Part shown: in pieces, positions 12,965 through 49,921 of the stretch
Position numbering within the stretch: position 1 is the first letter of the stretch
Layout of the letters: every line of letters begins with the position of its first letter
Virus record (IMG/VR): IMGVR_UViG_2671180890_000001
Reading direction: 5' to 3' (one strand)
Origin: a virus
Lineage: Duplodnaviria > Heunggongvirae > Uroviricota > Caudoviricetes
Length of the DNA stretch: 62,572 nt
Notes under the pieces: generated by a model
The model's input: only the letters and a program-made list of their open reading frames with translations
Told to the model about the DNA's origin: nothing
Database searches by the model: none
Program-made: the position numbers and the translations under genes

Positions 12965-12967
12965 TCC

Positions 12968-25385: not shown

Positions 25386-25426
25386 GGACTCCTCCACAGA
25401 GAGAAAATGGCCCCGAAGGGCCATGA

Positions 25427-26452: not shown

Positions 26453-26507
26453 AAAAAAATCCCGTAAAAAAAGCCGCACAGGCGGCCTTTAGTGATGAAG
26501 GGTAAGG

Positions 26508-26840: not shown

Positions 26841-26849
26841 AAACATCCC

Positions 26850-28149: not shown

Positions 28150-28169
<20 letters not shown>
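26850..28169 (-). CDS. C: Head protease / scaffold C, with in-frame Nu3
   Basis: Lambda C-like from (V)TAELRNLPHIASMAF; ORF track extends upstream into B. Confidence 0.9.
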
Positions 28170-31850
<3,681 letters not shown>

Positions 31851-31876
<26 letters not shown>

Positions 31877-32396
31877 TCAGCAACCCCGGTATCAGTTCAT
31901 CCAGCGCGGCTGCTTTGTTCATGGCTTTGATGATATCCCGTTTCAGGAAATCAATATGCCGGTTATCCAGCTCAGGAAAACGTCGCTGCACCGACAGAGG
32001 AATACCGTCGAGAATACTGGATATTTCCCTTGCTATACGCGACAGCACGAAAGTACAGAATGCGGTTTCCACCACTTCAGCCGATTCTTTGGCATTTTTC
32101 AGTTCCTGCGCCGTCGCCTGAGCACGGGTCAGGCGATGGCGCTCAAATTCAAGTGTTCCGGGGTGAAGATCTGCCTCGCTGGCCAGCCGCAGTTCTTCAA
32201 CCTCCCGGCGCAGCTTTTCGTTCTCAATTTCAGCATCCCTTTCGGCATACCATTTTATGACGGCGGCAGAATCATAAAGCACCTCATTACCCTTGCCACC
32301 GCCTCGCAGAACGGGCATTCCCTGCTCCTGCCAGTTCTGAATGGTACGGATACTCGCACCGAAAATATCAGCCAGCTGCTTTTTGTTGACTTCCAT
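31851..32396 (-). CDS. nu1: Terminase small subunit Nu1
   Basis: 181 aa, lambda Nu1-like with winged HTH. Confidence 0.95.
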
Positions 32397-32479
32397 TGTT
32401 CATTCCACGGACAAAAACAGAGAAAGGAAACGACAGAGGCCAAAAAGCCCGTTTTCAGCATCTGTCGTTTCCTTTCTTT

Positions 32480-32600
32480 TCAGGGGGTGTTTTAAATAAA
32501 AACATTAAGTTACGGCGAAGAAGAACGGAAACGCCTTAAACCGGAAAATTTTCATAAATAGCGAAAACCCGCGCGCCTTCCGCCCCGTAACAGGCCGGAT
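32480..32600 (-). promoter_or_regulatory. cos packaging site (cosB-like R and I1 elements, cosN region)
   Basis: Reverse complement closely matches lambda cosB (AAACGAAAACCCGC ... CATAAATAGCGAAAAC ... TTAAATAAAAACATTAAG); cohesive-end core differs from lambda. Confidence 0.7.
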
Positions 32601-32685
32601 CGCCGGAAAGGACCCGCAAAGATGAGAATAATTATTACTTGCATTAATATCCGGCTTCTTCCACCATCGCACCGGACGGGCGACT

Positions 32686-32830
32686 ATGAGGGACAAAACC
32701 GCGCACCATAAACGCGGTAAAAACCCGGTGTGCATCGTTTTTGATTATTCCCGCACACTCGCGCAGAAGGAGTTCCCCGTCGGGCTACGGTCATGGTTAA
32801 TGCGGGAATACAGCGACGATACAGCGCATG
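32686..32830. repeat. Direct repeat copy 1 (about 145 bp, ~90 percent identical to 34472..34620), flanking the AT-rich moron
   Basis: Shared core GCGGTAAAAACCCGGTGTGCATCGTTTTTGATTATT...GAGTTCCCCGTCGGGCTACGGTCATGGTTAATGCGG. Confidence 0.7.
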
Positions 32831-32943
32831 ATGTGTCAGGCTTGAATACATTTATCCGTTAAAAGGGATATCAGTTAAGTTATCCCGTGTAGGGTATAAG
32901 CCATTATCAAAGCCACTCAGTAGCGAATGGCTTTTGTAATGGA

Positions 32944-33393
32944 CTATTTAATTAGTGATGCTGCGTATTCGATTAGATATAACTTAGGTGCCAACCAGAT
33001 TTTTAACCATGTCATATTGGTTACTACAGCAATAATAAAACTTACCCACAGAACAAAAACTGCTGCTAATGGTAAGATAAGAAAACTAATCTCACCGTTA
33101 CTTTCCCAAATCATAGTCGGTTTGTATTTAGGCTTCCCTTTTTCCCATGACCATCCGTCATTATCGAACTTACCAATTTCAACTTTTTGGTACTGTTTCT
33201 TCATAAACCAAATAACCAGCGGAATTGTTGAAATTGCTATTAATGTTTTAATCAGGCTATCAACCATATTCCATACCAGCAACTGATGAACAACATCCGG
33301 AATCTGTGCCTGACTGAATGCAATGGCGGAATCAATTCCATCGCTGGCCTTCTTCAATAAATCAACAAGAATTTTATTTGCTTCTTCTTGCAT
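32944..33393 (-). CDS. Moron gene: small membrane protein, function unknown
   Basis: 149 aa, two or three hydrophobic segments, AT-rich coding sequence. Confidence 0.5.
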   Translation of the reverse strand: MQEEANKILVDLLKKASDGIDSAIAFSQAQIPDVVHQLLVWNMVDSLIKTLIAISTIPLVIWFMKKQYQKVEIGKFDNDGWSWEKGKPKYKPTMIWESNGEISFLILPLAAVFVLWVSFIIAVVTNMTWLKIWLAPKLYLIEYAASLIK

Positions 33394-33517
33394 GTTTATA
33401 TCCTGTAAGTTGTAAGCCTGTTCGAAAAAAAATAAACAACTACGAGAGACAGAAAAAATATCTCAGGCTCTCTTTCTATAAGCTTTTAGTTGAGGATGTT
33501 CTGCAAAACAAAACTGG

Positions 33518-34378
33518 TTAGTTATGTAACTGCTTCCGGAATACAACAGCCGACGTGCTACAACGTAAAATTCGCTTGATTGTGGCAGTTGAGGAAACAG
33601 ACTTGCATTTCTCAACATCATCAATAATGACCACATCCGGTACAGGAATGACGCGGGTATGCAATGTTTTTGCACTAATAACATCACAGCCATTCAGTGG
33701 TCGAATATCTGCATCTTCAGGCACTACCAGAAGCACACGTTTTTCCGGTGCAGAAAAGCCAGCAGCAAGAGTGCGTGACAATAAAGTCATTCCGCTGCAT
33801 GGCTTCATACAAATTTCAGAAATATGATTCTTTTCGTCCAAATGATGCTGGACATCATTTTTATCATCACTCAACAACTCTGCTGTTAATACAATCCCTG
33901 CTGTCTCAGATTTCCAGGAAATGCTGATATCCTGATCATCTGCATCAACATCATATTCCATCGAGTAAGGACTAAAGCTACGTCCAACGAACGCATCATT
34001 TACCAGTACACGCCCACCCTGTCTGACCTGAAAGTCAACGCGCCCTGAAAGCTGATTTGCTGTTACAAGCAATGCCTTTTTTCTTTTTGTTTTATTGCTC
34101 ATTGCCACCAACTGTTCAGCCATCTCTCTTGTCACACTACCAGAAACTCTTTCTTGAATTTTCACAGAAAATTTTCTGGATGTAGTAGCATCGACATTAA
34201 AAAATCTGGATGTCATCAGGCAGTTATTAACAATTGGCATCAGCTCACTTACGATTGTAAAAAATTCCCGGTAAAGCTCATTTTGCTTTTCAACACACAG
34301 CTTTCCACAATCGTCCAGCTTACGCTCAAGAGCACTTAACCTTTCCATTATTGAATTAATTTTTTGCAACTCTTTCAT
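33518..34378 (-). CDS. Moron gene: 286 aa protein with N-terminal coiled-coil, function unknown
   Basis: ATG start at MKELQKIN; ORF-track N-terminal extension to 34639 is an artefact of reading through repeat copy 2 and a sopC-like palindrome. Confidence 0.5.
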   Translation of the reverse strand: MKELQKINSIMERLSALERKLDDCGKLCVEKQNELYREFFTIVSELMPIVNNCLMTSRFFNVDATTSRKFSVKIQERVSGSVTREMAEQLVAMSNKTKRKKALLVTANQLSGRVDFQVRQGGRVLVNDAFVGRSFSPYSMEYDVDADDQDISISWKSETAGIVLTAELLSDDKNDVQHHLDEKNHISEICMKPCSGMTLLSRTLAAGFSAPEKRVLLVVPEDADIRPLNGCDVISAKTLHTRVIPVPDVVIIDDVEKCKSVSSTATIKRILRCSTSAVVFRKQLHN

Positions 34379-34402
34379 CAAAACCTCCTGACAAAGATAC
34401 CG

Positions 34403-34418
34403 TGCGACCACGGTCGCA
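34403..34418. promoter_or_regulatory. sopC-like centromere palindrome (TGCGACCACGGTCGCA), site 1
   Basis: 16 bp perfect palindrome; one G-to-C change per half-site from the F sopC core TGGGACCACGGTCCCA. Confidence 0.6.
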
Positions 34419-34471
34419 CGCTCCTGAATACATGCCCTGTTTCTTCCACCCTCGCACAGGACTGGCGAGCA

Positions 34472-34620
34472 TGAGGGACAAACCCGCGAATCATTAGCGC
34501 GGTAAAAACCCGGTGTGCATCGTTTTTGATTATTTCCGCACACTCGCGCAGAGGAGTTCCCCGTCGGGCTACGGTCATGGTTAATGCGGAAATACGGCGA
34601 CGATGCAGCGCGGTATTTAA
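34472..34620. repeat. Direct repeat copy 2 (pairs with 32686..32830)
   Basis: See copy 1. Confidence 0.7.
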
Positions 34621-34622
34621 TG

Positions 34623-34638
34623 TGCGACCACGGTCGCA
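34623..34638. promoter_or_regulatory. sopC-like centromere palindrome, site 2
   Basis: TGCGACCACGGTCGCA. Confidence 0.6.
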
Positions 34639-34658
34639 AACGAGAAACAAAGAGATTT

Positions 34659-34970
34659 TTATGCTACAGAGGAACAAGCTGGCGGGTAATTCAGCGTAGT
34701 GAATACCGGCATCTCCATCTTGTATGCGTAATGATACTCAGCAGTTGCTCCAGCAGACGCTTTCCAGCCAGGAAGCATCAAAATAGCATCAGCACAACGA
34801 AGCATTGCAAAGCAAATATCCATGTATTCACGTTGTGTCAGACCATTAGGCAAAGTGGCTGGATTCAAGACAGAGTGACCATGTCGTGACAAACGATCTG
34901 CCTCTTTATTAAAGGCGTCACGATTAAAGTTCTCATATCCCGTCATTGGCCCGGCAATATAAATTTTCAT
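34659..34970 (-). CDS. DUF4406-like protein (nucleoside 2-deoxyribosyltransferase-like fold)
   Basis: 103 aa; N-terminal MKIYIAGPMTG motif. Confidence 0.55.
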   Translation of the reverse strand: MKIYIAGPMTGYENFNRDAFNKEADRLSRHGHSVLNPATLPNGLTQREYMDICFAMLRCADAILMLPGWKASAGATAEYHYAYKMEMPVFTTLNYPPACSSVA

Positions 34971-35011
34971 TCACTATCCAACAAATTGAGCTCGTTTTTG
35001 ATACAGAGGGA

Positions 35012-35461
35012 TTAATTCAGGCATTGCGTCTTGATGTATTCCTGCAAGTAGTTAACCTGCGCAGTTATCCTGTCGATCCCACTTCGGAGACGGTAATAAT
35101 TGAGTTCAGCATCTGCTGTAAGTCTTGGGCTTTCTCCATTGCCCATGCCGCTGGCTCCGGTCGTTGACTTTGCACAGGTGGCGGCGACTTGCAGGCGCTT
35201 ACGCCCAGCAGAAACATCAGCACGGAGGCTTTCGATAGTCGCGTTAGCATCAGCAAGCTCCTTTGTATATCTGGCATCGAGTTCCGCTACGTCACGTTGA
35301 CGCTTCTGCATATCAGCGATTGTGGATGTGGCTTTATCGCGCTGCTCTTTGTAGGCGATGGCGTTATCACGGTAATGATTAACAGCCCACGACAGGCAGA
35401 CGATGATGCAAATAACCAGAGCGGAGATAATCGCGGTTACCCTGCTCATTGTTGACCCCAC
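35012..35461 (-). CDS. Rz: Spanin inner membrane subunit Rz
   Basis: Lambda Rz-like ([30 protein letters not shown]). Confidence 0.9.
35065..35277 (-). CDS. Rz1: Spanin outer membrane lipoprotein Rz1, embedded in Rz in the +1 frame
   Basis: Lipobox LGVSAC followed by a proline-rich segment; true start probably an internal Met. Confidence 0.75.
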
Positions 35462-35946
35462 AAACAGACTTCACGCTCAATCTCACGACGAGTCATCAGG
35501 CCTTTCCATTGCTTACCGCCAGCAGATATCCAGCGACGTAGCTGATCACATGCGCCTTTGATATCGCCCTGGTTTATTTTGCGAAGAAGCGTCGATGTTC
35601 TGAAATTACCAGCACCCACGTTGTAAACGAACGAGTAAAGAGCGCCGCGCGTTGTTTCCGGTATATCGACTTTGATGTACGGGTTAATTTGTCTGGCGAC
35701 AGTGGCAAGGTCTTTATTCAGGAGAGCTTTGCATTCTGCTTCGGTATACGTTTTACCTAGCATGATGTCTTTTCCAGTGTGTCCGTAACATACAGTCCAT
35801 ACGCCAACAATATCTTTGTATGGTATGTAACTGACACCTTCCAGACCATCGTTACCACTTGGGCCAGTGATGAGCATAGACGCTATGGCAATAGCCCCGC
35901 CACCAATAGCCGCTGTGACAGCTTTGCGTAATGATGACTGCATCAT
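35446..35946 (-). CDS. Endolysin, lysozyme-type with N-terminal signal-anchor-release segment
   Basis: 166 aa; hydrophobic Gly/Ala-rich N-terminus then lysozyme-like core. Confidence 0.8.
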
Positions 35947-36215
35947 ATTTCCTTCGGTGCTCTCTTCCCCAGCTCTCCAATAACCATCGCTGTAGCAGAA
36001 AGATTATTGGTATTAGTTTTATCCAATATGTCCTGCAATATCTTCGTGCGCTTCATCTGCTCGCGTTTATTGAGCCGGTATGTAAGCACACCGAGGATAA
36101 TGCTGAACGCGACACCGATAATGAAGCCCCAATCCTGCAATGACAGGCTGGCAAAGAACGCAGCAAGACCAGCGCTACCATAAGATGCACTGCTGTATCG
36201 TTCATCCATCTTCAT
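35943..36215 (-). CDS. Holin (pinholin-like)
   Basis: 90 aa, hydrophobic transmembrane segments and charged C-terminus, directly upstream of endolysin. Confidence 0.6.
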
Positions 36216-36310
36216 ATCTCTTACCTCGCAATAGTTGCTGAGGTTTCGGCTTGGAAACTATATGGCGAAAATAACCCCTACCAAAAACGGCAGGGGAATA
36301 TATTCTCCAG

Positions 36311-37432
36311 TTACTCAAATAACTTTTTCACTTCATCAACTGTCTGAAGATAACGTTCGCCCTCAATCTCAATACCTATTGCCTGACGTCCTAACTTCAG
36401 CGCAGCTTTAATAGTTGAGCCTGATCCCATAAAGAAATCGGCAACGATATCTCCGGGGCGTGAACTACTCTTTATAATATGTTCCATCATCGCTGCAGGT
36501 TTTTCACATGGGTGCTTGCCAGGATAATATTGCACAGGAGGAAACTCCCATACATCGGTATAAGGTACATCAGCAGTAACATGAAATGGACGGCGTAAAT
36601 TTTCATACTGAGCCTTCAAATCATCATACTGCTTCTTTACTTCCTCATAATGCAATTTCAGATCGCTATAACGCTTTTCATGTTCTGAATAATCAACATT
36701 AAAAGGATATGGACACGGGACACCGAGTGAATCTGCCTTCCTGCGAAATAATTCGCATAGTTTATTAAAATCAATTAATGATGGAAGCCGCCACTGCGAA
36801 TAAGAAAACCAGTGTGAACACATCTGCTTTCCTGTCGCTGAATTAATGTCTGCGGCTGATATATCTAACTGACGGCGAGCCAGCGAAAAAGCATCAATTA
36901 GTGGAGAAAAAATATTTTTTCTTAAATCTGCACATTTTGAAGCATAACCTGACTGACCTTTAGCATAACCTGACGCGCCGTAATGCTCTGCAAATAATAT
37001 TCTTTCAGTAGCAGGAAAATAAGCCCTTAAACTTTCTTTATGACAACCGCGCCACATACCACTGGGTTTAGCCCAAATGATATGGTTCAGAACATTGAAA
37101 CGGTCGCGAGTTAATAATTCAATTTTTGACGCAAGGCGAGAGCCGGTAAACATATACAGGCTGCCATTAGGGGCCAATATCCGCCAAAATTCTGCCAAAA
37201 ATTCGTCAATCCACCCCAAAAAGTCAGCATCGCTATCCCACTGGTTATCCCATGCGTTAGCCTTTACGCCGAAGTATGGTGGGTCTGTTGCAATCAAATT
37301 GACCGAGTTATCAGGGATGGTTTTGATAAATTGCAGAGAATCTGCGCAAACGAGTTGTGCGCCATGAATATTAGTGGTTTTGAACATAGCTATTATTTTT
37401 TTGCCTGGGTAAGCTAACCCGGCGATGCGCAT
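36311..37432 (-). CDS. Orphan DNA methyltransferase (N6-adenine or N4-cytosine, DPPY class)
   Basis: DPPY catalytic motif near the N-terminus and FxGSGST AdoMet motif near the C-terminus; no adjacent restriction enzyme gene. Confidence 0.85.
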   Translation of the reverse strand: MRIAGLAYPGKKIIAMFKTTNIHGAQLVCADSLQFIKTIPDNSVNLIATDPPYFGVKANAWDNQWDSDADFLGWIDEFLAEFWRILAPNGSLYMFTGSRLASKIELLTRDRFNVLNHIIWAKPSGMWRGCHKESLRAYFPATERILFAEHYGASGYAKGQSGYASKCADLRKNIFSPLIDAFSLARRQLDISAADINSATGKQMCSHWFSYSQWRLPSLIDFNKLCELFRRKADSLGVPCPYPFNVDYSEHEKRYSDLKLHYEEVKKQYDDLKAQYENLRRPFHVTADVPYTDVWEFPPVQYYPGKHPCEKPAAMMEHIIKSSSRPGDIVADFFMGSGSTIKAALKLGRQAIGIEIEGERYLQTVDEVKKLFE

Positions 37433-37517
37433 CGCGGGTGGGCTTTAGGTTCAGCCTATAGCTCTGGCATGGGTTGACCGCAGGACAAGCTGCAACTTGT
37501 CCTGCGCCCACTTTTCA

Positions 37518-37550
37518 GGCACAAAAAAACCGCCATAAAGGCGGCTTGTT
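37518..37550 (-). terminator. Strong Rho-independent terminator (candidate tR-prime-like late terminator) upstream of the methyltransferase
   Basis: GCCGCC-TTTAT-GGCGGC followed by T7 on the minus strand; additional hairpins nearby. Confidence 0.45.
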
Positions 37551-37632
37551 GGCTGTTGGGTACAAAAAACCCAACTTAACAAAACAATAACTAAAAACCG
37601 TCATTTTGCCAAGCTTTTTCGTTTTTGTGCTG

Positions 37633-37648
37633 TGCGACCGTGGTCGCA
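37633..37648. promoter_or_regulatory. sopC-like centromere palindrome, site 3
   Basis: TGCGACCGTGGTCGCA within the 20 bp palindrome TGTGCGACCGTGGTCGCACA. Confidence 0.6.
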
Positions 37649-37654
37649 CAGCTT

Positions 37655-37882
37655 TTAGAAAGTTGCCTGCTTATATTCATCGGTCAAAGAATATCGACCA
37701 GATCCGCTACGCTTTGCAACCCCAAAACAGATCATCTGTTCGATGATAAATTCAACGGCAGCTTGACTCAAAAAACAGGCTTCGCTTAACTCTTTCAGGG
37801 AAATGCGTGGGTATCCACGCATAACACATTCCACACTCAGGGCCGCTTCAGTCATATTTCCACGAATTTCATTAATATTCAT
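37655..37882 (-). CDS. Hypothetical small protein
   Basis: 75 aa ORF. Confidence 0.4.
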   Translation of the reverse strand: MNINEIRGNMTEAALSVECVMRGYPRISLKELSEACFLSQAAVEFIIEQMICFGVAKRSGSGRYSLTDEYKQATF

Positions 37883-37895
37883 AACGCCTCTCTAA

Positions 37896-38135
37896 TCAAT
37901 CTTGAAACTGGAAATCAACATCAGCCATAAAGCGGTTCAACTCAGCCAGTTTTGGCCCCATAGTCCCAACTAAGCGACCAGCCAGTCGGTCTGTTAGGTT
38001 GGTACTGTTGAAACCATATTCCTTTTCGAAACGTTCAATCTTCTGCCACAACTCATACAGTTCGTTAGCTATCTCCGCAACGTCGTCGCGCATTTTTTCG
38101 TTACCTTGATAATTCATAATATCCTCCAAATTCAT
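37896..38135 (-). CDS. Hypothetical small protein
   Basis: 79 aa ORF. Confidence 0.4.
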   Translation of the reverse strand: MNLEDIMNYQGNEKMRDDVAEIANELYELWQKIERFEKEYGFNSTNLTDRLAGRLVGTMGPKLAELNRFMADVDFQFQD

Positions 38136-38282
38136 ATAGTTAGTGGGTTATTACCCCTCAATGACACGAACTGTAACTCTGCCAAACGAACACATCCAGT
38201 GTTATTTTTCGCTTTTTAGTGAAATTTTTAATTTGCGTTGTTTTCTTGTTTTAGTGTATTTTATGGATATGGAGGCTATAAT

Positions 38283-38594
38283 ATGTTTAACGTGATAACC
38301 CACCCTGCAGCACTGGATGAACTGCTTGAACTACCAGATGATTTGCGAGGTCGCATGACCAGATTAATTGAGCGACTGGAGAAAGAAGGCAACAAACTGA
38401 AGATGCCCCATAGCCGTGTAATAGGTGGAGGGCTTTTTGAACTACGAGTAGGGGATAAAAACATCGCAAGAACGCTGTACGCCTACGCGACTGGTAACGA
38501 AATTTATCTATTGCATGCATTTGTAAAAAAGACACAGAAAACACCGGTGAAGGCTATCGAAATCGCCAGAACTCGCCTGAAGGAGATGAACTGA
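38283..38594 (+). CDS. Type II toxin, RelE/HigB superfamily (phage Gp49-like)
   Basis: About 103 aa from MFNVITHP; toxin precedes antitoxin as in hig modules. Confidence 0.7.
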   Translation: MFNVITHPAALDELLELPDDLRGRMTRLIERLEKEGNKLKMPHSRVIGGGLFELRVGDKNIARTLYAYATGNEIYLLHAFVKKTQKTPVKAIEIARTRLKEMN

Positions 38595-38881
38595 TGAAAG
38601 CGAAAGGCATCCCGTTTAACGAAGTAAAAGAAAAACTCCTCAACACTCCAGAAGCCGTCAAAGGATATGAAGAGGCCGACAAAGAGCTGGAGATGGTCGA
38701 AATGTTATACGAAATGAGGGAAAGAGCAGGTTTAACGAAATCAGCTCTGGCTGAACGAATGGGGTTGCGACCGTCAGCCATCAGCCGCCTGGAAAGCAAT
38801 CCTTTAGGGGCAAGTATGAAAACTTTGGCTAAATATGCTCATGCCTGCGGCGCAACCATCGATATTCGCGCTGTTTATTAA
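38594..38881 (+). CDS. HTH (XRE-type) antitoxin, HigA-like
   Basis: 95 aa; HTH segment LTKSALAERMGLRPSAISRLE; ATGA overlap with the toxin stop. Confidence 0.7.
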   Translation: MKAKGIPFNEVKEKLLNTPEAVKGYEEADKELEMVEMLYEMRERAGLTKSALAERMGLRPSAISRLESNPLGASMKTLAKYAHACGATIDIRAVY

Positions 38882-38923
38882 TTAGACTCTTTTACTACCC
38901 CGTCCAGAAGGGCGGGGTGTGCA

Positions 38924-39127
38924 TCAATGATGTGAACGCTCAACAGCGATAGTTTGCTGACAATGCTGGGCAATCTCTCGCGACATGTTGATGAGTCGTG
39001 AAACCTCACCAATATGTAGGCTGGCTTCTGGAGAAGCCAGGGTGACGCTAACCAGATCCAGAACGGCGTCAATATCTCTTAAATTTGAATCGAGTTGTTC
39101 AAGAGTTGATACGGCTGCTTCAGACAT
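38924..39127 (-). CDS. Hypothetical protein
   Basis: 67 aa ORF. Confidence 0.35.
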   Translation of the reverse strand: MSEAAVSTLEQLDSNLRDIDAVLDLVSVTLASPEASLHIGEVSRLINMSREIAQHCQQTIAVERSHH

Positions 39128-39209
39128 TAAATCTCATACCATTTAACTAAAAAAGGTTATTTATACTGTATAAAATTACAGGGTAAAACTCAAACTTTAC
39201 GGTCAATTT

Positions 39210-39452
39210 TCAATGAATTAACTGCGTAAACTGCTGTGTGACCCGATACTTATGCTCTCTCCCTATGCCACGATCAACTTTCTCAAGAAGTCCAGTACGG
39301 ACAGCAGAATCAAGCATCCTTTTAACAATTCTGCTATTTAACCCAACATCAAAAGAAAGCATCGAAGCGAAAACAAAACCATCACCACCATCAGAAAAGC
39401 TCTTTTCGCTCCGTTTTCGTATCATTTCAAAAAGCAATGCCTTTTTATCCAT
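39210..39452 (-). CDS. Hypothetical protein, possible winged-helix DNA-binding
   Basis: 80 aa ORF. Confidence 0.4.
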   Translation of the reverse strand: MDKKALLFEMIRKRSEKSFSDGGDGFVFASMLSFDVGLNSRIVKRMLDSAVRTGLLEKVDRGIGREHKYRVTQQFTQLIH

Positions 39453-39470
39453 TTATCCCTCCGTGACCAG

Positions 39471-39797
39471 TCACGCTTTGAGCGCAAGTTTCAGCCTCGT
39501 GGTTGTAAGGTGGCATGACCCTTCGCCATCAAAAATGCATTCTGAAACAGGCATTTTTTGACCACATCGCTGGCAAGTAGTAGATAGCTGCTTCTGCAGC
39601 TCCTTATAGTTTTTCCTGATCAGCAAACCAATGACTTCGTTCTCCGAATATGGAACTCGCCCTGGTCTACGCAATACACAAATTTCCCCCAACATACGTA
39701 ACTCGTCAGGTTCTAGAATCCAGTCCCGTCTTGATGTGCCTTCCTTCTTCAACCGTTCCCTGCGTCTCCTTTGCCGTTCTGCCGGTGTCAGCGCCAT
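39471..39797 (-). CDS. Hypothetical protein with basic N-terminus and Cys-rich C-terminus
   Basis: 108 aa ORF. Confidence 0.4.
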   Translation of the reverse strand: MALTPAERQRRRRERLKKEGTSRRDWILEPDELRMLGEICVLRRPGRVPYSENEVIGLLIRKNYKELQKQLSTTCQRCGQKMPVSECIFDGEGSCHLTTTRLKLALKA

Positions 39798-39812
39798 AAA
39801 TCCTCCTGAAAA

Positions 39813-40343
39813 TTACTTAACCCAATTAACTACACCGCCAGCGGCCACAACCGCCCTTTCACAGTCACGCTCATATCTCAAAGGTTGAAATACACCATCA
39901 ATAAAATATTTATCTCCACCAAACGCTGCAGGAAGTGAAACAGAAAACTGAATATGACCATCCAGAGTTACCGGAGAGTTGCCAGCCAGTCTACGCAACA
40001 CAGCCTTAACGGCCTCAATACGGTCATCATCAACTTTTTCTACAATATTGGAATTTAAATACTTCGAAGCCTTGCTATGCCAATCGCTGGTTTTAGGGTC
40101 TTGTCCATCCATCAAACGCCAAGCTTCAGCGATTAACTCATAGCCAGTGACAGTGGCTTCCTGCGCATCACCAATAAGTCGTGTAATCTCTCTTTCAAGC
40201 CGACCGCCTAGCTCTGTTTTAGTGCAATGTTCTGACCAATCGCCAGCCTCAAGCAGCGCGAGAATGCTTAAAATATCGTCCAATAGAACGGTAGTATTAT
40301 CGACTTCCTTCTGAAACTCACCGGCTACTGATTTATGCATCAT
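39813..40343 (-). CDS. Hypothetical protein
   Basis: 176 aa ORF. Confidence 0.45.
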   Translation of the reverse strand: MMHKSVAGEFQKEVDNTTVLLDDILSILALLEAGDWSEHCTKTELGGRLEREITRLIGDAQEATVTGYELIAEAWRLMDGQDPKTSDWHSKASKYLNSNIVEKVDDDRIEAVKAVLRRLAGNSPVTLDGHIQFSVSLPAAFGGDKYFIDGVFQPLRYERDCERAVVAAGGVVNWVK

Positions 40344-40642
40344 TCGTCATCCTCATCTGAGTCATCCTCATCACAGGATGAGAGTAGTGGGTTAGTCATT
40401 CGCCCTACTTGAGTGGCGTAGCCACGCCGACAGAGATTGCGCAGCACACTGTATATTTCGAACATCTCGGTTCGTTCATCACCAACATCAAGCTCAGATG
40501 CTATAGCGTGGCATTCAGTCGCGAGAGCCGATATTTTCTGAAATAACTCTGCTTTATTCACTCTTCGACTCCTGCGGCGGTTCTGGTAGTGGCATCCAGT
40601 GAGTTGCTTGCTCAATACCATTACCCGGCTTAATCGTTGCAT
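40340..40642 (-). CDS. Hypothetical protein with poly-acidic C-terminal tail
   Basis: 100 aa ORF ending CDEDDSDEDDE; start overlaps the upstream gene so one start is wrong. Confidence 0.4.
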   Translation of the reverse strand: MQRLSRVMVLSKQLTGCHYQNRRRSRRVNKAELFQKISALATECHAIASELDVGDERTEMFEIYSVLRNLCRRGYATQVGRMTNPLLSSCDEDDSDEDDE

Positions 40643-41303
40643 CTCCGCGCCGAAAGGTGCTTCCGGTATAGCGTGCGGAGCATATTAGCGGTTCAACCAG
40701 AGAGCTATCGAAATTCACCGAAATAAGCACGTTCTGGCCCTTTTCAGGCATTCGCTCACTACAGCTTATCCAACCATCCGGAGTTACCGGATAGTTGCCA
40801 GCCTCATACGCGACCCTTATCCAGTGCATAAGCATTTCAGTACTTACACATCCACAATCAACATCAATTTTGTCATGCTGCTGTTCCAGCCATTGCTCAA
40901 AAGTTAACTTGTAAGTTTGGCTTACAGGTTTGGCTTCCAGTTCTGCTATGTGATTTTTGGCTGATTCCAACTCAATCGACAATTTTTCCAACTGCTCTTT
41001 ATGATTTTTATATTCCTGATATGCGTGCCAGGACTGACCTTTGCGCACACTATCAGTGATATCAGTAATCTGTTCTGGTGTTAGCGTGGTCAGTGGCTGT
41101 GATGGGAAAATAAGCACTTTCCCGGAATCCCAATCAAAACCAGCGTGAATTGACTGAACCTCAACTGAAGGTGTTGAACCAATGCTGCCAGGCGAATGAA
41201 CAACGATTGTTACATCCATATCGCGACGATGGCTGTGGTTGTTGGACAAAATACGATTCAACAAAATACGATTCACCAACTCAGAAAATTTAGAAAATTT
41301 CAT
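40554..41303 (-). CDS. DUF551-type phage protein
   Basis: C-terminal PDGWISCSERMPE ... HWMPLPEPP pattern. Confidence 0.5.
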   Translation of the reverse strand: MKFSKFSELVNRILLNRILSNNHSHRRDMDVTIVVHSPGSIGSTPSVEVQSIHAGFDWDSGKVLIFPSQPLTTLTPEQITDITDSVRKGQSWHAYQEYKNHKEQLEKLSIELESAKNHIAELEAKPVSQTYKLTFEQWLEQQHDKIDVDCGCVSTEMLMHWIRVAYEAGNYPVTPDGWISCSERMPEKGQNVLISVNFDSSLVEPLICSARYTGSTFRRGDATIKPGNGIEQATHWMPLPEPPQESKSE

Positions 41304-41668
41304 GCTGATTCACCTTTCTCTGCTCTCTCCTGTCGGAACATCACTATCATCAGGTCGCCTTTTGTCGCTATCTTGGCTGTTGTGCCTGGCTCAATGCGGC
41401 TAAGTTCAAATGCGTCATAGAACGCCTCCAACGCTTTCTGGCGTTTTTCCTGTTTGCGGCGCTTTCCCCACTGCTTTAGAAAAACAGAGGCCGCCCACTT
41501 CCCCGCACTGAACATGATGTAAAACCAACCGAGAAGTGCCAGACCGGTATTTAGGGCCGTATCGATCGTTATCGTGGTGTCGATATTCACTACGCCACCT
41601 CCTGAAAATTTCCCTGATAAAACGCCAACACACGCTGCATAACTTCGCTCTTCCGACAATCGTGACAA
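41300..41668 (-). CDS. Hypothetical membrane-associated protein
   Basis: 122 aa ORF with one hydrophobic segment. Confidence 0.4.
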   Translation of the reverse strand: MSRLSEERSYAACVGVLSGKFSGGGVVNIDTTITIDTALNTGLALLGWFYIMFSAGKWAASVFLKQWGKRRKQEKRQKALEAFYDAFELSRIEPGTTAKIATKGDLMIVMFRQERAEKGESA

Positions 41669-42009
41669 ATCATGTTCAAGCGCCTGTCGTAACGACGTAT
41701 TTCTCCGTCAGGTAATGACCAGATAAGGTCTGGATCAACCACTACCGATTTCTTCGGCTTTACTCTTGATAGTTTTTTACGGGCGTTTTGCCAGTCCTTG
41801 CGTGCTTGTGCAGACAGAAATATCCCGGAGCCAGAGATATACAAATCACCACTGGCAGCAAGCTCTCTTGATAAACGACTAACAGCACACCGGCTAATAC
41901 CAGTTTCATCCGCAAGTTGCCTAACCGTTCCTCGTCCATTCAGGCGCACGAGTTCCACAATTTGTTTATTCAGTTCTTCCCTCTGTTCTGGTGTAAAAGC
42001 CTTTGCCAT
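41590..42009 (-). CDS. HTH DNA-binding protein
   Basis: 139 aa; HTH-like RQLADETGISRCAVSRL. Confidence 0.5.
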   Translation of the reverse strand: MAKAFTPEQREELNKQIVELVRLNGRGTVRQLADETGISRCAVSRLSRELAASGDLYISGSGIFLSAQARKDWQNARKKLSRVKPKKSVVVDPDLIWSLPDGEIRRYDRRLNMICHDCRKSEVMQRVLAFYQGNFQEVA

Positions 42010-42608
42010 TACGATTCTCCTTGCCCTTTTACAAGACGGGAGAAAATTGCGGATACATATTTAGCCTGATGAATAGCATCAGCCAGGGCATTGTGTCGTT
42101 CGCCATCAAATGGCATATCTTTTTTAGGATTAAAACCAATAAACTGACCAAGATTAACGATTGTTCGAACATCCTGATCATTAAAATATTCCCACGGACA
42201 GGCTAAGCCAACGCGCTCATAAGCACCGCGTAAAATTACATTATCGAACGTTGCTCCATTTCCCCATACTTTCAATTTTTTTAAATTACATGCATGGCAA
42301 GTAATAAAGTGTGATAATTCAAAAAGTGCATCCTTAATATCAAGGACATCATTAGTACAAATAGCGGCTCTGGCTTCCTTGCTCTGTTTCAACCACCATA
42401 AAATGGTATCACCATCGGCGATACCACCATTCAACATCGAGCTTCTGAGATTCACTGGCACATAAAAAGTAGGACCTAATTCCTCACTTTCTGGAGAAAA
42501 AAACACTGCCCCGATAGAAACAATTGGAGCACATGTGTTAGTACCCATTGTTTCAAGGTCAATCATTACATCAGACCGTTTCCTGTCGTAAATAATCTGA
42601 TTAGTCAC
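42009..42608 (-). CDS. 3'-5' exonuclease, DEDD family
   Basis: 199 aa; DLETMG exo I motif and C-terminal H...D motif. Confidence 0.7.
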   Translation of the reverse strand: MTNQIIYDRKRSDVMIDLETMGTNTCAPIVSIGAVFFSPESEELGPTFYVPVNLRSSMLNGGIADGDTILWWLKQSKEARAAICTNDVLDIKDALFELSHFITCHACNLKKLKVWGNGATFDNVILRGAYERVGLACPWEYFNDQDVRTIVNLGQFIGFNPKKDMPFDGERHNALADAIHQAKYVSAIFSRLVKGQGES

Positions 42609-42631
42609 GAATAATTCTCCTCAACGTTTAT

Positions 42632-42835
42632 CTATACCCAAATTTTCTGTTGATATGTTCTGGATGGTTTTGGCGTTCTTTCTGATTCAGGTAAATGAAC
42701 ATAAACGCAATATCCATCACCTAAAAAATCAGAACGAACAACCAGAACTTTCTTACCACGCCGCCGATAAGTATCTGAAAGACGCTCTGCTTCATCATGC
42801 GTCATCGGCCCCTGCTTAAATGGCGTTATTTTCAT
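42632..42835 (-). CDS. Hypothetical small protein
   Basis: Start taken at MKITPFKQ; the ORF-track extension reads through a sopC-like palindrome. Confidence 0.4.
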   Translation of the reverse strand: MKITPFKQGPMTHDEAERLSDTYRRRGKKVLVVRSDFLGDGYCVYVHLPESERTPKPSRTYQQKIWV

Positions 42836-43136
42836 TTTCTTGTGCGACCACGGTCGCACCCTCTCTGATTTCCAAGTAACGCTTAATCCAAAGATTTTCT
42901 ATATGCTTATTACCTGGCTGATTTGATAAATACCAATCGGCAATTACAGACTGCTTATTACTATCTGGTCGTGTCCTGTAACCACAAGTTGGACACCAGA
43001 TAACATATTCATTTCTTACCCCCGAATACCTTAATTCTGGCTTCGACGGTTTCCTGAACATAACTTGTTTACAAAGACAGAATGGCACTTCCTGCCCGAT
43101 GGCGTTTGATGATTTCACTGCGCTTCTCCGCCGCAT
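42816..43136 (-). CDS. Zinc-ribbon protein, possibly Lar-family restriction alleviation
   Basis: CxC ... CPTCG cysteine pairs; start uncertain. Confidence 0.35.
   Translation of the reverse strand: MRRRSAVKSSNAIGQEVPFCLCKQVMFRKPSKPELRYSGVRNEYVIWCPTCGYRTRPDSNKQSVIADWYLSNQPGNKHIENLWIKRYLEIREGATVVAQENENNAI
42843..42858. promoter_or_regulatory. sopC-like centromere palindrome, site 4
   Basis: TGCGACCACGGTCGCA. Confidence 0.6.
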
Positions 43137-43779
43137 TTAATAATGCAGTTCGATTTAAGCTCAGACATCGCGACTTAATTAAAAGCCAGCGTTCTTTATA
43201 ATCTTGTCTCCAGCTATCAATAGATATATTCAGTAGAAAACTCAGATGCCTGTCCTGTTCTCTCTCATCAACTGCCTCAGCACACGTAAGTTCTGATTTA
43301 ACCTGTTGTGCCGCGTAATAAATCAATTTCCGCATGGCTTTTTTCGTGGAGGCCTTCATTTTTTTAAAGCCGCCCCCCGAATGAGCAACCAGAAAATCAA
43401 GCCATAACCACTGACAAACAATCACATCATTGTTGTAATCAGGCTTGCATCCGTAGCAATAATAAAGCCAGGCTGATTCCTCGTTATTCAACTGACCAAT
43501 AGCCCTGCGCCAGCTGGCGCTCTGAAAATCAATATCAGTGAGCAACATTGATGATTGTTTAAATGTTTTCCCCTGGTGGAATCTAACCGGCTCAGCAGGA
43601 ACGGACACTTCGTATGAGTTATCATCCCCCACACTGATTGACCGGACTGGTTTATTGTTAAACCGTCCTGATCTACCGAGACGCATCTGCTCAAGCTGGA
43701 CCTCCAGAATGCCACGCTGGCGATAATGAACATCAGCCAATGCCGTAGAGACGCAGCTGCGTATATACTCAAGCTCCAC
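43069..43779 (-). CDS. Putative late antitermination protein Q-like
   Basis: 236 aa; position immediately downstream of cro on the same strand; family assignment not verified. Confidence 0.4.
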   Translation of the reverse strand: MELEYIRSCVSTALADVHYRQRGILEVQLEQMRLGRSGRFNNKPVRSISVGDDNSYEVSVPAEPVRFHQGKTFKQSSMLLTDIDFQSASWRRAIGQLNNEESAWLYYCYGCKPDYNNDVIVCQWLWLDFLVAHSGGGFKKMKASTKKAMRKLIYYAAQQVKSELTCAEAVDEREQDRHLSFLLNISIDSWRQDYKERWLLIKSRCLSLNRTALLNAAEKRSEIIKRHRAGSAILSL

Positions 43780-44017
43780 GCTTACGACTCTCCTTAATCG
43801 ACTGCTTTACCCGCCGAGTTGTAAAGTCACTCTTCAGCTTATAAGCAGTACGAACTTCAATATCGCTTTGCCGCAATGAAGGAATCTCTCCAGCGGTTAA
43901 CCATTGGTAAACAGCTCCGGGTGTTACACCTACCCCTGCCGCTGCTTTTTCTACACTGCCAAAATGGCGAATAAGTTCTTCTGGTTTCATGTTGTTATTA
44001 TAAACAATAAACAACAA
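43769..44017 (-). CDS. cro: Cro-like repressor
   Basis: 82 aa with HTH (VGVTPGAVYQWL), divergent from the CI-like repressor. Confidence 0.6.
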   Translation of the reverse strand: MLFIVYNNNMKPEELIRHFGSVEKAAAGVGVTPGAVYQWLTAGEIPSLRQSDIEVRTAYKLKSDFTTRRVKQSIKESRKRGA

Positions 44018-44081
44018 TTAAAGCCAGCTATAATAAATAAATTTTATAGCCAGCTATAAGAAGATCATTTATGATTACAGT
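44018..44081. promoter_or_regulatory. Divergent promoter/operator region between cro and cB
   Basis: Repeated AGCCAGCTATAA / TTATAGCCAGCTATAA motifs. Confidence 0.5.
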
Positions 44082-44678
44082 ATGAAAACACGAGGCGAAC
44101 GACTGAAAGCACGCCGTTTAGAGATGAAGCTGACGTTGCGAGAAGTTGCTGAGGCTGTCGATATCTCTATAGCAGGCGTCCAAAACTTAGAACGTGGCGA
44201 CGTAATGCCGTCACTGGAGATAGGTATTGCCCTGGCTAAGTGCTTACGCAAGCCAGTGCATTGGGTGCTATATGGGACAGAATATGACCCTGATCGCATT
44301 CCTGTTATTGGCACAACTGAAAGTGGGCCGGATGAAGAGTGGAAGCCGGGACAGGTTCCAAATACTGAGCGATTCCTGCCATTCATCAGCCAGCGCAATA
44401 CTGTGTATGCGTTAACTATCAGCAATCTTACGCAGGGAAACTATCAGCCAGGCGATTTTCTCCTGGTCGATTCTGCGCTGGAACTGGTCCCCGGCGAGGA
44501 TGTTCTGGTTCGTGATACTGCAGGAAATATCACTATCCAGCGCCTGGCCCGTTTTGATGATGAAAATTACTATCTGGATGGAACAAACTCACAACGCGCC
44601 ATCTTCAGGAAAAGCGATCTTGAATTTGTTCACCAAATAGTCGGAACGATCAAATCATTCATGGTTGAGGGTAGATGA
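44082..44678 (+). CDS. cB: Prophage repressor, CI/CB-like (HTH plus C-terminal S24-like domain)
   Basis: 198 aa; N-terminal HTH_XRE LTLREVAEAVDISIAGVQNLERG. Confidence 0.8.
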   Translation: MKTRGERLKARRLEMKLTLREVAEAVDISIAGVQNLERGDVMPSLEIGIALAKCLRKPVHWVLYGTEYDPDRIPVIGTTESGPDEEWKPGQVPNTERFLPFISQRNTVYALTISNLTQGNYQPGDFLLVDSALELVPGEDVLVRDTAGNITIQRLARFDDENYYLDGTNSQRAIFRKSDLEFVHQIVGTIKSFMVEGR

Positions 44679-44923
44679 CTTAATACGGGGTTTATTGTTT
44701 GCTGTAAATCTGGTTTAATGCAGGGCATATGTTCTGTGGGTTGACTCAGGTTACAGCAGCAGAAAAAAGACGAAAAAAAACCCGAGTCGGCAAACTCGGG
44801 TCCTTTTCAGGAAGCAGCCACAGTAACGCGACGGATTCCGTCAATTCAAGATGCGTTTATTGTGGCTGCTCCTGCGGATTTTTTCAACCCGAAAAAACAT
44901 AATTCGCATGGAATTGCTAAAAA

Positions 44924-47900
44924 ATGACATTAAACGATTTCTATGCGGATCGCTTTGGCAGCGATCCGTTCTCGCTAATTGAAGCAGCACGGGATGAACT
45001 AACCGAGCTGGCACAGATGGCTGGTATCAACTGGCCTGCCTGTTCCGACAACATCCAACTCAACCCTCGCGGGGGGGTTGAGCGTTACTCTTCATACAAT
45101 AAAACATCTCCAGAAGCTCTCGAAAAGAGCCTGAAAGGACGCGTAGAAATTTACTCCAGGCTGGAACACAGCAAAGGGATTGATTACCCGTTCATTAACT
45201 TCGTCCATAAAGGCAGCGATGCTGGCTCATGGAGCGGTTTCTCCTTCCTGTTTTCTGAATATCGCCGTGAGCAACAACGGAATAATGCGACCGTGGTCGC
45301 ACAACCGGAAGAAGAACGGGAAAGAATAGAACGTCAGGCCGAAGCACGTCGTCGCCGTGAAGAACAAAAACGAATTAATGACCTGAAAAACAACCAAATG
45401 GACCATGAACGTTTGCTGGGATGGCTGGCATTCCACAGCGCGTGGGAACATGCTCCGGCTGAAGACGGCTCATGGCCATATGCGATTAAAAAAGGTATTC
45501 GTGACGTTTTTAGTTCATGTGATGTGCGTCGCGTGACCAGTCACGACAGTGCGAAATGGAGCCGGGGGCCAACCACATATATGGCTATCCCTCTGGCTCA
45601 CCTGGACAGTCGTTATGATGGTCGTATTGTGGGTTGGCAGCGAATCGACAAACAAGGTGGGAAATACCAGACCAGCGCAGTAACCAGCGGCGATTTCGTC
45701 GGTGCCTGCTTTGTTATCGGTGAGCTGAAAGGGGCGCAAAACATCGCTGTTACAGAAGGTTTTGCTACTGGTGCATCCATCTGGCTTGCCACGAAAAAAG
45801 ATAAACGCTTTGACGCTGTGGTTGTCGCTGTATCCGCTAACAACATGGTTCATGTTGTGGAACAACTGGTAAACATGTACCCGGCGGCAAAAATCACCTG
45901 CGCACTGGATAATGACCGGAAATCTGCCACAGAAGGAAAAGGGAATACCGGCCTGCGGACTGGCTATGAAATCTTATCGAAATTCAACGATGTCCGCTGC
46001 GTCTATCCAACTTTTGAAGACGATCCGCAAATGGAGTGCAGTGACTTCAACGACCTGCACAAACTACGTGGACTTCGTGAAACAGCACGTCAACTGTTTG
46101 CAACAGCAAACCGCCTGAAAACCGGTACTGATTTGCTATCTCTGACGCTCAACCGCCTGAAGACAATTAAGCGGGATAACCGTCGTACTTTTGCCAAAGA
46201 GCTGCTGAGAGCGGTGGATATTGGCATGCTAACCTGTCCGGTTCCTAACAGTCCGTCAGATTTATTTAACATGTTCTGCATCGTTCTGCGTGAAATGGGA
46301 CTGGAAAATATCTATCGTGCTACGGTAAAAGACCACATTGCCCGTCGCCTGAATAAAAAGTGCCGTATTGCCCAGGCTCCGCGCTCTTTCAGCGAACGCA
46401 TAACTGATCCCAATAAACGACCTCAACATATCACCTATAAGCGTTTTGAAACTTCGGTAATGACCGATGATGTCCTGAAGTACGTGCAATCACTACAGGG
46501 GATAGTCATCGTCCGTGCTGGTATGGGTTCCGGCAAATCTACTGGATTGTTACGACCGTTAATGCATAGCTCAGAACGTGGTATCTCTGTTGCTCACCGT
46601 GTCTCCCTTATTGGTGGCCTGTGGGAAATGATGACAGAAGGAAAAGGTGTAAAAGCCGATATCCTGCACTATCAGGATCCTGGCTATCAGGAAATGGCTC
46701 CATACGCCAGTAAACTGACCATCTGCATAAACTCGATTGTTAAAAACTGCTGGCAACCGTTGATGCGCCAGCACGACTATTTTGGCTTTGACGAGGCCAC
46801 ACAAGGGCTACGTGCCGTTCTTTCCGGTCGGGCTATGGAAAACCCGGTGGCTGTATTCAATACGCTAATTGACGCGCTGGCCAGAACGGAACAACACCCA
46901 ATCATGGTGGATGCTGATGCGAACGATCTGCTGGTTGACCTGGCTGAACTGGCTATGAAACGCCGTGAAGAACTAGGTTTACCGGCATGGCTGCAGATCC
47001 ACGTAATTGAATTACCTGTTGATGTTCGCAACCGCGAAACAGGTGAGCCAATCCGGGTTTTTTATACAGAAAAAGATCGCATCATGACCGAGGTGGTGAA
47101 AGCTGTATCGGATGGCGAAAAAATCATGTTGGCCACCGACAGCTCCACCTTTGCAGAAGATGTGACAGCCACCCTGAGAATGCATTTTCCTGGTAAGAAA
47201 TTTCTGTGTGTAAACCAGAAAAACAAACCAGAGCCAGAAGTTGAAGCATTTACCAATCAACCGAAAAAGATGGTCAAAAAATACGACGGCCTGATTTATA
47301 GCCCGTCTATTTCATCCGGCGTGTCGATTGAGCAAAAACATTTTGACCGTCATTTCGGCATGTTCTGTGGTGAAGTTGTACCCAGCGACGCAGTGCAAAT
47401 GCTACGCCGCGACCGTACAGCAAAAGAATTTATTATCGGCTTTGATAAAGCTCGTGCAAAACGTGAAACTGACCCGCAAAAAATAGAACGAGCATTCGCC
47501 CAGGCATTGCTTGCTACTGCAGGTATGAACGGTGAACTGACGGATGTCGTTTTCGATGGCGACCGTATATCAATGGGGGTGGCCAATACCGACTTTACCA
47601 GGATGAAAATTAAAGCAGCCGCAATTGAAGCGTCTGCACGTAACGACTACGCCAGCAACATGATCTGCATCATGCACAGCGACGGTTATAAGATATCGCC
47701 GCTGGCCACCGATTATGCTGCAAATGATATCGGTAAAGATCTGCGTAAAGAAGCGCGGGATATTGTGTGGGAACAGACACTGGATCTGCATCTCAATACA
47801 GAAACTCCACAAGAATCAGAGCGTGAAGAACTGCTAAAAAAACGCGCGCTGACGCTTGAAGAACAGGCAAAACTTGTCCGCTGGGATATTGAGAACGAAC

Positions 47901-48919: not shown

Positions 48920-49103
48920 TCAGTGGATATTATCTTTGTGTCTCTTGCTTTGTGTGTTCCAGCAATGGTTTTGGTTCATAGATCGAAAGTCTCACAAGGA
49001 AAACATGAAGGCCAGGAAGGCGATGTTTCGTGGTGAACAACTCGCGCAGACTTATCGTATGTGGAAACGTTTCTATCGTGATTTTTCGGTGAACGGGGAG
49101 TAA
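48912..49103 (+). CDS. Hypothetical small membrane protein
   Basis: Internal Met MGNQWILSLCLLLC; overlaps repA stop. Confidence 0.4.
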   Translation: MGNQWILSLCLLLCVFQQWFWFIDRKSHKENMKARKAMFRGEQLAQTYRMWKRFYRDFSVNGE

Positions 49104-49107
49104 AAAT

Positions 49108-49434
49108 ATGTCTACTACTGCATTTTTGGACAAACTTGATTACCGTCAGCTGCAGTTTTGCCGGGATGAATGCGATCGACGCATTAAGGCTATCCAGGAG
49201 GAAGAAAAAAAGGTTGCCTGGGCTGTAACAGATCGTGGCCTTATCTTTGGCTGGTTCCGTACGGAGGATTATCTGAAAGCAGTGGAATTATTGGCGCGTG
49301 AGGCTGCTGAGCGTTGGGAACGAGCCGACAAGGAAAACCCGGAGACGAAGTATGAACTGAATCTCTACATCGAGGGCAACCGTCTACCATTGTCAGAGTA
49401 TAACGCTTTGTTTGCTGATGGTGAGTGGGGTTAA
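49108..49434 (+). CDS. Hypothetical protein
   Basis: 108 aa ORF. Confidence 0.5.
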   Translation: MSTTAFLDKLDYRQLQFCRDECDRRIKAIQEEEKKVAWAVTDRGLIFGWFRTEDYLKAVELLAREAAERWERADKENPETKYELNLYIEGNRLPLSEYNALFADGEWG

Positions 49435-49832: not shown

Positions 49833-49921
49833 ATAGTGATGACTGTTCAAGTTAAACCGTTCTCGGCATATTTTATTTAATGGAATAACATATTATTAAT
49901 CAAATAGGTTAAGTTAATATT

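Follow-up and report, generated by a model that had tools for sequence, protein, structure and literature searches.

In the IMG/VR virus record IMGVR_UViG_2671180890_000001, a stretch of 62,572 nucleotides that is referred to here as the window, two adjacent open reading frames (ORFs) were analyzed as a putative toxin-antitoxin locus. The locus is already known insofar as it is an intact orthologue of the described addiction pair gp49-gp48 of phage N15, carried by a close relative of N15, and very probably it is an operon of the Gp49/Tad-Ata group that functions as a type II toxin-antitoxin system by the mechanism proposed below. Both ORFs were recovered from the ORF list and the sequence on the plus strand, at the coordinates given by an earlier reading of this DNA (the original prediction).

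The first gene (38283..38594, plus strand), orthologous to N15 gp49, encodes a toxin of the Gp49/Tad type of the RelE superfamily. It starts with ATG at 38283, ends with TGA at 38592-38594 and codes for 103 amino acids. The second gene (38594..38881, plus strand) is the orthologue of N15 gp48 and encodes an antitoxin of 95 amino acids with an XRE-type helix-turn-helix (HTH) domain; its ATG lies at 38594 and its stop codon at 38879-38881. An overlap of 4 bp had been claimed for the two ORFs, but the actual overlap amounts to 1 bp, since in the junction TGATG the A at 38594 is common to both. The junction of N15 (TAATG) likewise has a 1-bp overlap, and that of phiKO2 (ATGA) a 4-bp overlap. Each gene is preceded by a Shine-Dalgarno sequence on the plus strand. 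That of the toxin gene (GGAGG, 38271..38275) is located 7 nt before the ATG and is invariant in eight relatives, while that of the antitoxin gene (AGGAG, 38581..38585), 8 nt before the ATG, is kept in N15 and phiKO2. The position of the latter within the 3' end of the toxin gene suggests translational coupling. The toxin ORF extends upstream to a TTG at 38238, which we rejected as the start codon, because the ATG at 38283 possesses a Shine-Dalgarno sequence and matches the annotations of N15, phiKO2 and the Prokaryotic Genome Annotation Pipeline (PGAP). The locus is thus a toxin-first bicistronic operon with overlapping ORFs, the arrangement by which the tad-ata/gp49-gp48 group is recognized.

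Families, folds and active site of the toxin and antitoxin

The toxin is 92% identical to N15 gp49, the protein after which the Pfam family Gp49 is named, and 91% identical to phiKO2 Gp49 (tblastn). A search with hidden Markov models of the Gp49 family, which the original prediction had proposed, matched the toxin end to end: residues 12-100 correspond to positions 1-90 of the 90 positions of the PF05973 profile (101.6 bits with a cut-off of 23.9; E 2.5e-29). The same domain is present in all full-length homologues among the matches listed (119/119). In the Pfam scan there was no toxin match at E <= 0.1 to the HigB families PF05015 and PF09907. Of the designation 'HigB/HigA-type', which had been given to the pair, the gene order and the affiliation to the RelE superfamily therefore stand, but a Pfam match to an Rts1-type HigB is lacking and the proper label is Gp49/Tad (tad-ata group). 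The original prediction had also overlooked the orthology to the N15 pair, the founding member, which has already been tested. NCBIfam contained no specific model; there the toxin matched TIGR02683 alone, with 15 bits and a cut-off of 62.9. In PHROGs it belongs to phrog_2523, which is annotated as 'unknown function'.

An AlphaFold2 model of the toxin, which was built from 46 homologues, reached a mean predicted local distance difference test (pLDDT) score of 88.3 and a predicted template modelling (pTM) score of 0.81. Its elements are a strand at residues 3-6, helices at 8-15 and 19-35, strands at 44-48, 51-57, 62-70 and 73-82, and a helix at 89-102. The predicted fold is that of RelE/BECR proteins, in that it combines two N-terminal helices with an antiparallel sheet of four strands and a long C-terminal helix; a long helix alpha-3 is a trait of Gp49-like toxins (PMC9098466). 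In a Foldseek search of the PDB, the ribosome-bound HigB1 of Mycobacterium tuberculosis (7nbu_Y) and HigB of Streptococcus pneumoniae (6af4) ranked highest, with query-normalized TM-scores (TMq) of 0.78 and 0.75, respectively. The crystal form of HigB1 (7awk) was also among the best matches, and YoeB and RelE were next in rank. The Pfam match, the predicted fold and the identity to N15 gp49 bear out the part of the original prediction that placed a Gp49-like toxin with RelE fold first in the pair.

Residues proposed to be catalytic or to contact the mRNA have been listed for HigB1, also called HigB-TAC (PMC9098466, PMC7984235). In a sequence alignment, R45, E53, R55, N60 and R63 of the toxin pair with K58, E66, R68, N73 and R77 of HigB-TAC, and F80, K82, Q85 and K86 with F93, K95, Q98 and K99. 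In a loop, R63 and R77 are offset from each other by one position. E53, R55, R63, F80 and K82 are invariant across the alignment of the 46 homologues. The toxin has hence kept the basic and aromatic residues of a RelE-type active site, as is characteristic of the Gp49 family. Since a survey of 2025 (PMC11980606) counts the toxins of the Gp49 family among the ribosome-dependent mRNases, the toxin of this locus is, by analogy, most likely a ribosome-dependent mRNA endonuclease.

The same data bear on the possibility that the toxin, instead of being an mRNA endonuclease, poisons gyrase in the manner of ParE. ParE has the same fold, and PGAP uses the generic name 'type II toxin-antitoxin system RelE/ParE family toxin' for the first protein (its partner being a 'helix-turn-helix' protein). 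However, the Pfam scan gave no toxin match to ParE (PF05016) at E <= 0.1, and in the fold search the ParE structures, with TMq values of 0.41-0.51 versus 0.75-0.78 for HigB1/HigB, remained well below HigB, YoeB and RelE. As the RelE-type catalytic residues are also kept, we regard a gyrase poison as extremely unlikely.

The antitoxin begins with a segment of approximately 33 residues, to which an XRE-type HTH domain (residues 36-92) is joined. It matched the Pfam families HTH_3 (46.9 bits with a cut-off of 23; E 2.8e-12) and HTH_31 (37.5 bits, above the cut-off), as well as phrog_1373, a transcriptional regulator (E 3e-36). Sequence matches in the PDB were HigA2 of M. tuberculosis, HipB and HigA of S. 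pneumoniae. In NCBIfam, models of HipB, PuuR and RstR were matched, all under their cut-offs. The HTH_3 match and identities of 85% to N15 gp48 and 80% to phiKO2 Gp48 agree with the XRE-HTH antitoxin that had been predicted as second gene.

Orthologues, distribution and control region

By megablast, the region is about 99% identical to Escherichia phages YDC107_1 and PhiR46_1 and 75% identical to phiKO2. Its neighbourhood is alike in N15, phiKO2 and relatives, where gp51 and gp50 are divergent from gp49 and gp48 and gp47 is convergent. In the window the gp50 homologue (minus strand) starts at 38135, leaving a gap of 147 bp to the toxin-antitoxin operon, and the gp47 homologue (38924..39127, minus strand; 67 amino acids, phrog_6301) converges on the antitoxin gene. 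The latter also has a secondary PHROG match to the anti-repressor family phrog_10889 (E 6.9e-8). Compared with the N15 and phiKO2 orthologues, the two genes show a nucleotide identity of 74-81% and a protein identity of 80-92%. Synonymous sites are saturated, and the ratio of nonsynonymous to synonymous substitution rates (dN/dS) was 0.02-0.04 in the toxin gene and about 0.09 in the antitoxin gene. The fact that the DNA is less alike than the proteins, together with the low dN/dS and the saturation of synonymous sites, indicates that both frames are under strong purifying selection.

Fifteen of the 5426 complete Escherichia coli genomes contained the locus, always on a plasmid record and never on the chromosome. 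These records are mostly about 46 kb in size, and three of them have 61.5-75 kb. In PLSDB the same pair was found in 28 plasmids of E. coli, E. albertii, E. fergusonii and Shigella. A homologous cassette encoding a Gp49 protein and an HTH protein (70% and 52% identical to the toxin and its partner, respectively; 4-bp overlap) resides on chromosomes of Buttiauxella agrestis. There it is inserted (3001-3596 in the extracted regions) between a formate dehydrogenase gene (molybdopterin) and the hydrogenase-3 maturation genes hycI/hycH, and no phage or mobile-element genes were found within 3 kb of it. The occurrence of this pair outside a phage context argues that the two genes form an autonomous cassette. 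Type II toxin-antitoxin modules typically move as a two-gene unit, in which the antitoxin diverges faster than the toxin.

The gap between the gp50 homologue and the toxin gene harbors a putative sigma-70 promoter of the operon (38233..38262, plus strand), which was read by eye. It is composed of a -35 box (TTGCGT, 38233-38238), a spacer of 18 nt and a -10 box (TATTTT, 38257-38262), positions that are kept in eight relatives; transcription is predicted to start near 38269. Two related sites, to which no strand was assigned, lie close to it. The first, O1 (38207..38224), is an operator-like palindrome of 18 bp (TTTCGC-TTTTTA-GTGAAA), at which the HTH antitoxin is presumed to bind. The second, O2 (38242..38259), is a degenerate copy of the same 6-N6-6 architecture (TTTCTT-GTTTTA-GTGTAT), a putative operator that overlaps the presumed -10 box; the centres of both sites are 35 bp apart. 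The pattern TTTCNNNTTTTAGTGNA occurs twice in the 62.6 kb, solely at O1 and O2, versus 0.12 expected occurrences. In the spacer between gp50 and the toxin gene, the block that holds O1 is the most conserved, and the arms of O1 are perfect (TTTCAC/GTGAAA) in six of the eight relatives. In KpLi5 the palindrome is altered in the right arm (GTTAAA).

In the N15 annotation, the sequence TTTCAC-N6-GTGAAA upstream of gene 49 (2924-2944 of the N15 sequence compared) is described as a 'putative rho-independent terminator'. Judging from the sequence, an operator would fit the O1 palindrome better than this label, because the palindrome is located in a divergent promoter region and is conserved in the eight relatives. 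With two related 6-N6-6 sites that are unique to the upstream region of the operon, one of them kept in eight relatives, it is plausible that O1 and O2 are operators for antitoxin autoregulation, to which the antitoxin is predicted to bind. The motif is absent upstream of the Buttiauxella chromosomal cassette, so that the suggestion of operators could not be carried over to distant homologues. Within the spacer, the blocks ACACGAACTGTAACTCTG and CACATCCAG (38166-38200) are near-invariant from E. coli plasmids to Klebsiella phages, and the flanking spacer is variable. These blocks may serve the divergent gp50-gp51 operon as promoter or regulatory site.

Work by Dziewit et al. from 2007 is said to have reported that overexpression was bactericidal and that there were two promoters, of which one lay upstream of the antitoxin gene. 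Neither by eye nor by promoter scan did we detect a convincing internal promoter for the antitoxin gene of this locus. Between the antitoxin gene and the convergent gp47 homologue, a G+C-rich hairpin (ACCCCGTCC-AGAA-GGGCGGGGT; 38897..38918, no strand assigned) was identified, with a folding energy of -19.4 kcal/mol and a z-score of -3.4. There is a T-run on neither strand, and for this reason the terminator scan skipped it; it is possibly a bidirectional terminator or a 3' stabilizer. The sole terminator-like match of the scan, on the strand opposite to the antitoxin gene and within its bounds, was rejected as chance. An Rfam scan of 37000-40500 yielded nothing near any gathering score, and a weak RyhB-like match at 38160-38231 (23.9 bits versus 55) was also attributed to chance.

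The linear plasmid prophage

The view that the window represents a linear plasmid prophage was substantiated by the presence of a protelomerase gene, repA, sopAB and two hairpin-telomere palindromes. The protelomerase (TelN) is encoded at 52460..54355 on the minus strand, and SopA and SopB at 6622..8753. Further genes code for a RepA-like protein of 1331 amino acids, a Q antiterminator and a cB-like HTH repressor. The two palindromes are perfect and very long, with centres at 6164/6165 and 54546/54547 (within 1-12692 and 46940-62572). Their apexes are N15-type tel cores, CCCCATTATACG-TG-CGTATAATGGGG and CCCCATTATACG-CA-CGTATAATGGGG, whose central non-palindromic dinucleotides are complementary to each other. 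This is the outcome expected for hairpins that result from a staggered protelomerase cut at a single tel site. From the palindromes it follows that the true replicon comprises 48,382 bp (6165..54546), the remainder of the 62.6-kb window being read-through around the hairpins that has been joined artificially. The toxin-antitoxin pair is situated in the single-copy part. The end of the window (62214-62534) is the reverse complement of 12371-12692, and the record looks artificially circularized, with a false join near 62152-62213.

Some plasmid records of 36-92 kb in PLSDB, among them CP088810.1, CP088379.1, CP088430.1 and CP088562.1, contain two copies of the toxin-antitoxin pair. By analogy with the window, these copies likely reflect hairpin read-through in assemblies of linear phage-plasmids and not real duplications.

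An 18-bp palindrome, GTGCGACCGTGGTCGCAC, which is identical to a 'putative plasmid partitioning site' of the phiKO2 annotation, is present in five copies (34402-34419, 34622-34639, 37632-37649, 42842-42859 and 45285-45302) with 0-1 mismatch on the better-matching strand, where 0.01 copies are expected by chance. One copy, at a distance of 634 bp upstream of the toxin gene, immediately precedes the gp51 homologue. The copies are probably dispersed SopB centromere sites. We also noticed a direct repeat of about 188 nt (32640-32827 and 34425-34611, 1785 bp apart, 86-95% identical), the second copy of which is placed exactly between the centromere-like palindromes at 34402 and 34622. Other repeats, tandem and dispersed with a period of 189 nt, were found at 11988-12365, 58-339 and 62442-62534 in an apparent tail-fibre gene; the repeat sequence itself is rich in Ala, Ser and Lys in one frame. 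These repeats adjoin the end of the left palindrome and may have helped to cause the assembly join.

Proposed function and comparison with known systems

The N15 pair gp49-gp48 has been published as a toxin-antitoxin stabilizing system and a homologue of tad-ata, according to passages in several reports (PMC2701414, PMC5906591, PMC3581621, PMC4489591, PMC3606827, citing Dziewit et al. 2007, J Bacteriol 189:1983). For the locus studied here, one promoter in the 147-bp gap would transcribe the toxin gene and then the antitoxin gene, with the TGATG junction coupling their translation. The N-terminal part of the antitoxin would bind and neutralize the toxin, and a dimer formed through its XRE HTH domain would repress the operon, probably at O1 and O2. 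Upon loss of the linear plasmid prophage, which has a low copy number, the labile antitoxin would no longer be renewed, and the freed toxin would enter the ribosomal A site and cleave mRNA, as has been shown for its closest structural relative, HigB1 of M. tuberculosis, so that the cell is killed or arrested. Such post-segregational killing would serve as a backup to SopAB partition. In this scheme we infer that the toxin has ribosome-dependent RNase activity and that the antitoxin is labile, and the promoter and operator sites are likewise presumed. Stabilization of the replicon by the cassette has been reported for the N15 orthologue and may apply here by analogy, and the confinement to plasmids in E. 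coli is consistent with it.

Several points weigh against this interpretation. To our knowledge, neither RNase activity nor ribosome dependence has been demonstrated for N15 gp49, and the present allele, which differs from N15 in 8 toxin and 14 antitoxin residues, is known from its sequence alone. That stabilization and not defence is the main role is an assumption. In the control region, O1 carries a mismatch in the window, as its left arm (TTTCGC) has G in place of A, and it is positioned upstream of the -35 box and not over the promoter. The putative promoter itself is weak, with a consensus score of 8/12, and was missed by the promoter scanner at its threshold; downstream of the operon no canonical terminator was found. 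Finally, HigB2 and HigB3 of M. tuberculosis, which belong to the Gp49 family, are non-toxic, several catalytic residues being missing there (PMC9098466).

Such non-toxic relatives would be in line with a prophage regulatory module, in which gp48 controls neighbours, for example gp50-gp51, and gp49 is a co-repressor with little or no toxicity. The control region that the gp50 homologue and the toxin gene share contains the conserved O1, and a gp48 homologue is labelled 'repressor' in one phage record. The toxin, however, keeps the residues that HigB2 and HigB3 have lost (equivalents of K58, N73, F93 and K99), and several catalytic positions are invariant in the 46 homologues. Moreover, the same two-gene cassette exists without phage genes in the Buttiauxella chromosome, and the passages cited for the N15 pair describe it as a toxin-antitoxin stabilizing system. 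We therefore consider it very improbable that the pair is a regulatory module.

RelE/ParE-superfamily toxin-antitoxin systems are increasingly tied to defence, and the main role of the locus might be anti-phage defence by abortive infection or superinfection exclusion instead of plasmid addiction. Host transcription shut-off, or a phage protein that displaces or destabilizes the antitoxin, would then free the mRNase, which would block translation before the cycle of the invader ends. A Gp49-family HigB of E. coli, part of a toxin-antitoxin-chaperone (TAC) module, is reported to function in abortive infection, with a lambda tail protein as trigger (PMC11980606). That example needs a SecB-like chaperone, but no gene for one follows the antitoxin gene of this locus, where the next gene is the convergent gp47 homologue; the locus accordingly lacks the third member of a TAC module. 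In PADLOC, the toxin matched NsnC locally with its C-terminal half (E 2.6e-7), and the antitoxin had local matches to HTH_VI and PDC-M64B/C. These matches (NsnC C-terminus, HTH_VI, RmrA, PDC-M64) concern domains and do not make up a system, and we rejected them as evidence of defence. The phenotype published for the orthologue, as given in the passages cited above, is replicon stabilization, and the restriction of the E. coli locus to phage-plasmids fits addiction. The two roles are compatible, and defence as the main one appears unlikely to us.

Beyond addiction in the operon proposed here, gp48, with or without gp49, might couple maintenance to phage gene expression, a link to which the conserved divergent control region common to the cassette and gp50-gp51 points, and/or the freed toxin might abort competing phages without a chaperone. 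We know of one example of defence by the Gp49 family so far, and it uses a chaperone. We put forward such additional functions with considerable reserve.

The locus has little significance beyond its correct annotation, as it is an orthologue of the founder of Pfam Gp49 and is already named by standard pipelines. The phage-plasmid carries the full N15 maintenance set, namely a protelomerase, RepA, the SopAB partition system together with scattered centromere-like sites, and an addiction module, which bears on the stability with which such prophages persist in clinical Escherichia.

Among known systems, HigBA of Rts1 and of E. coli K-12 resemble the locus in being toxin-first, in their HTH antitoxin, in belonging to the RelE superfamily and in plasmid stabilization, but their toxins are members of other Pfam families (PF05015, PF09907), and HigB structures of E. 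coli and Shigella were weak fold matches to this toxin (E 0.07-0.09). HigB1 (HigB-TAC, Rv1955; 7NBU/7AWK) and S. pneumoniae HigBA (6AF3/6AF4) share with it the proposed catalytic residues and a Gp49-type RelE fold that includes the long C-terminal helix, and the HigA antitoxin of the latter aligns with the antitoxin of this locus. In contrast, HigB1 and S. pneumoniae HigB are only 24-28% identical to the toxin, and HigB1 is part of a three-gene module with a SecB-like chaperone. The toxin is also shorter (103 versus about 120 amino acids), ending one residue before the position of R117 of HigB1, a P-site tRNA contact.

The pairs tad-ata from plasmid pAMI2 of Paracoccus aminophilus and s045-s044 of SXT have in common with the locus a Gp49/DUF891 toxin, the toxin-first order, an XRE-HTH antitoxin and replicon stabilization (PMC2701414, PMC3832669, PMC4489591); the Tad-Ata group combines a COG4679 toxin with a COG5606/COG1396 antitoxin. 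They are, however, distant in sequence and likened by description, and their carriers are an alphaproteobacterial plasmid and an integrative conjugative element. Closest is gp49-gp48 of Escherichia phage N15 (Ravinvirus N15). Its nucleotide identity to the locus is about 77-80%, the left palindrome arm of the locus shows one mismatch to it, and the downstream spacer to gp47 is about 380 bp long in N15 versus 42 bp in the window. The two agree in gene order, 1-bp junction, neighbours, upstream palindrome and kind of host element, which in both is a linear plasmid prophage encoding TelN and SopAB.

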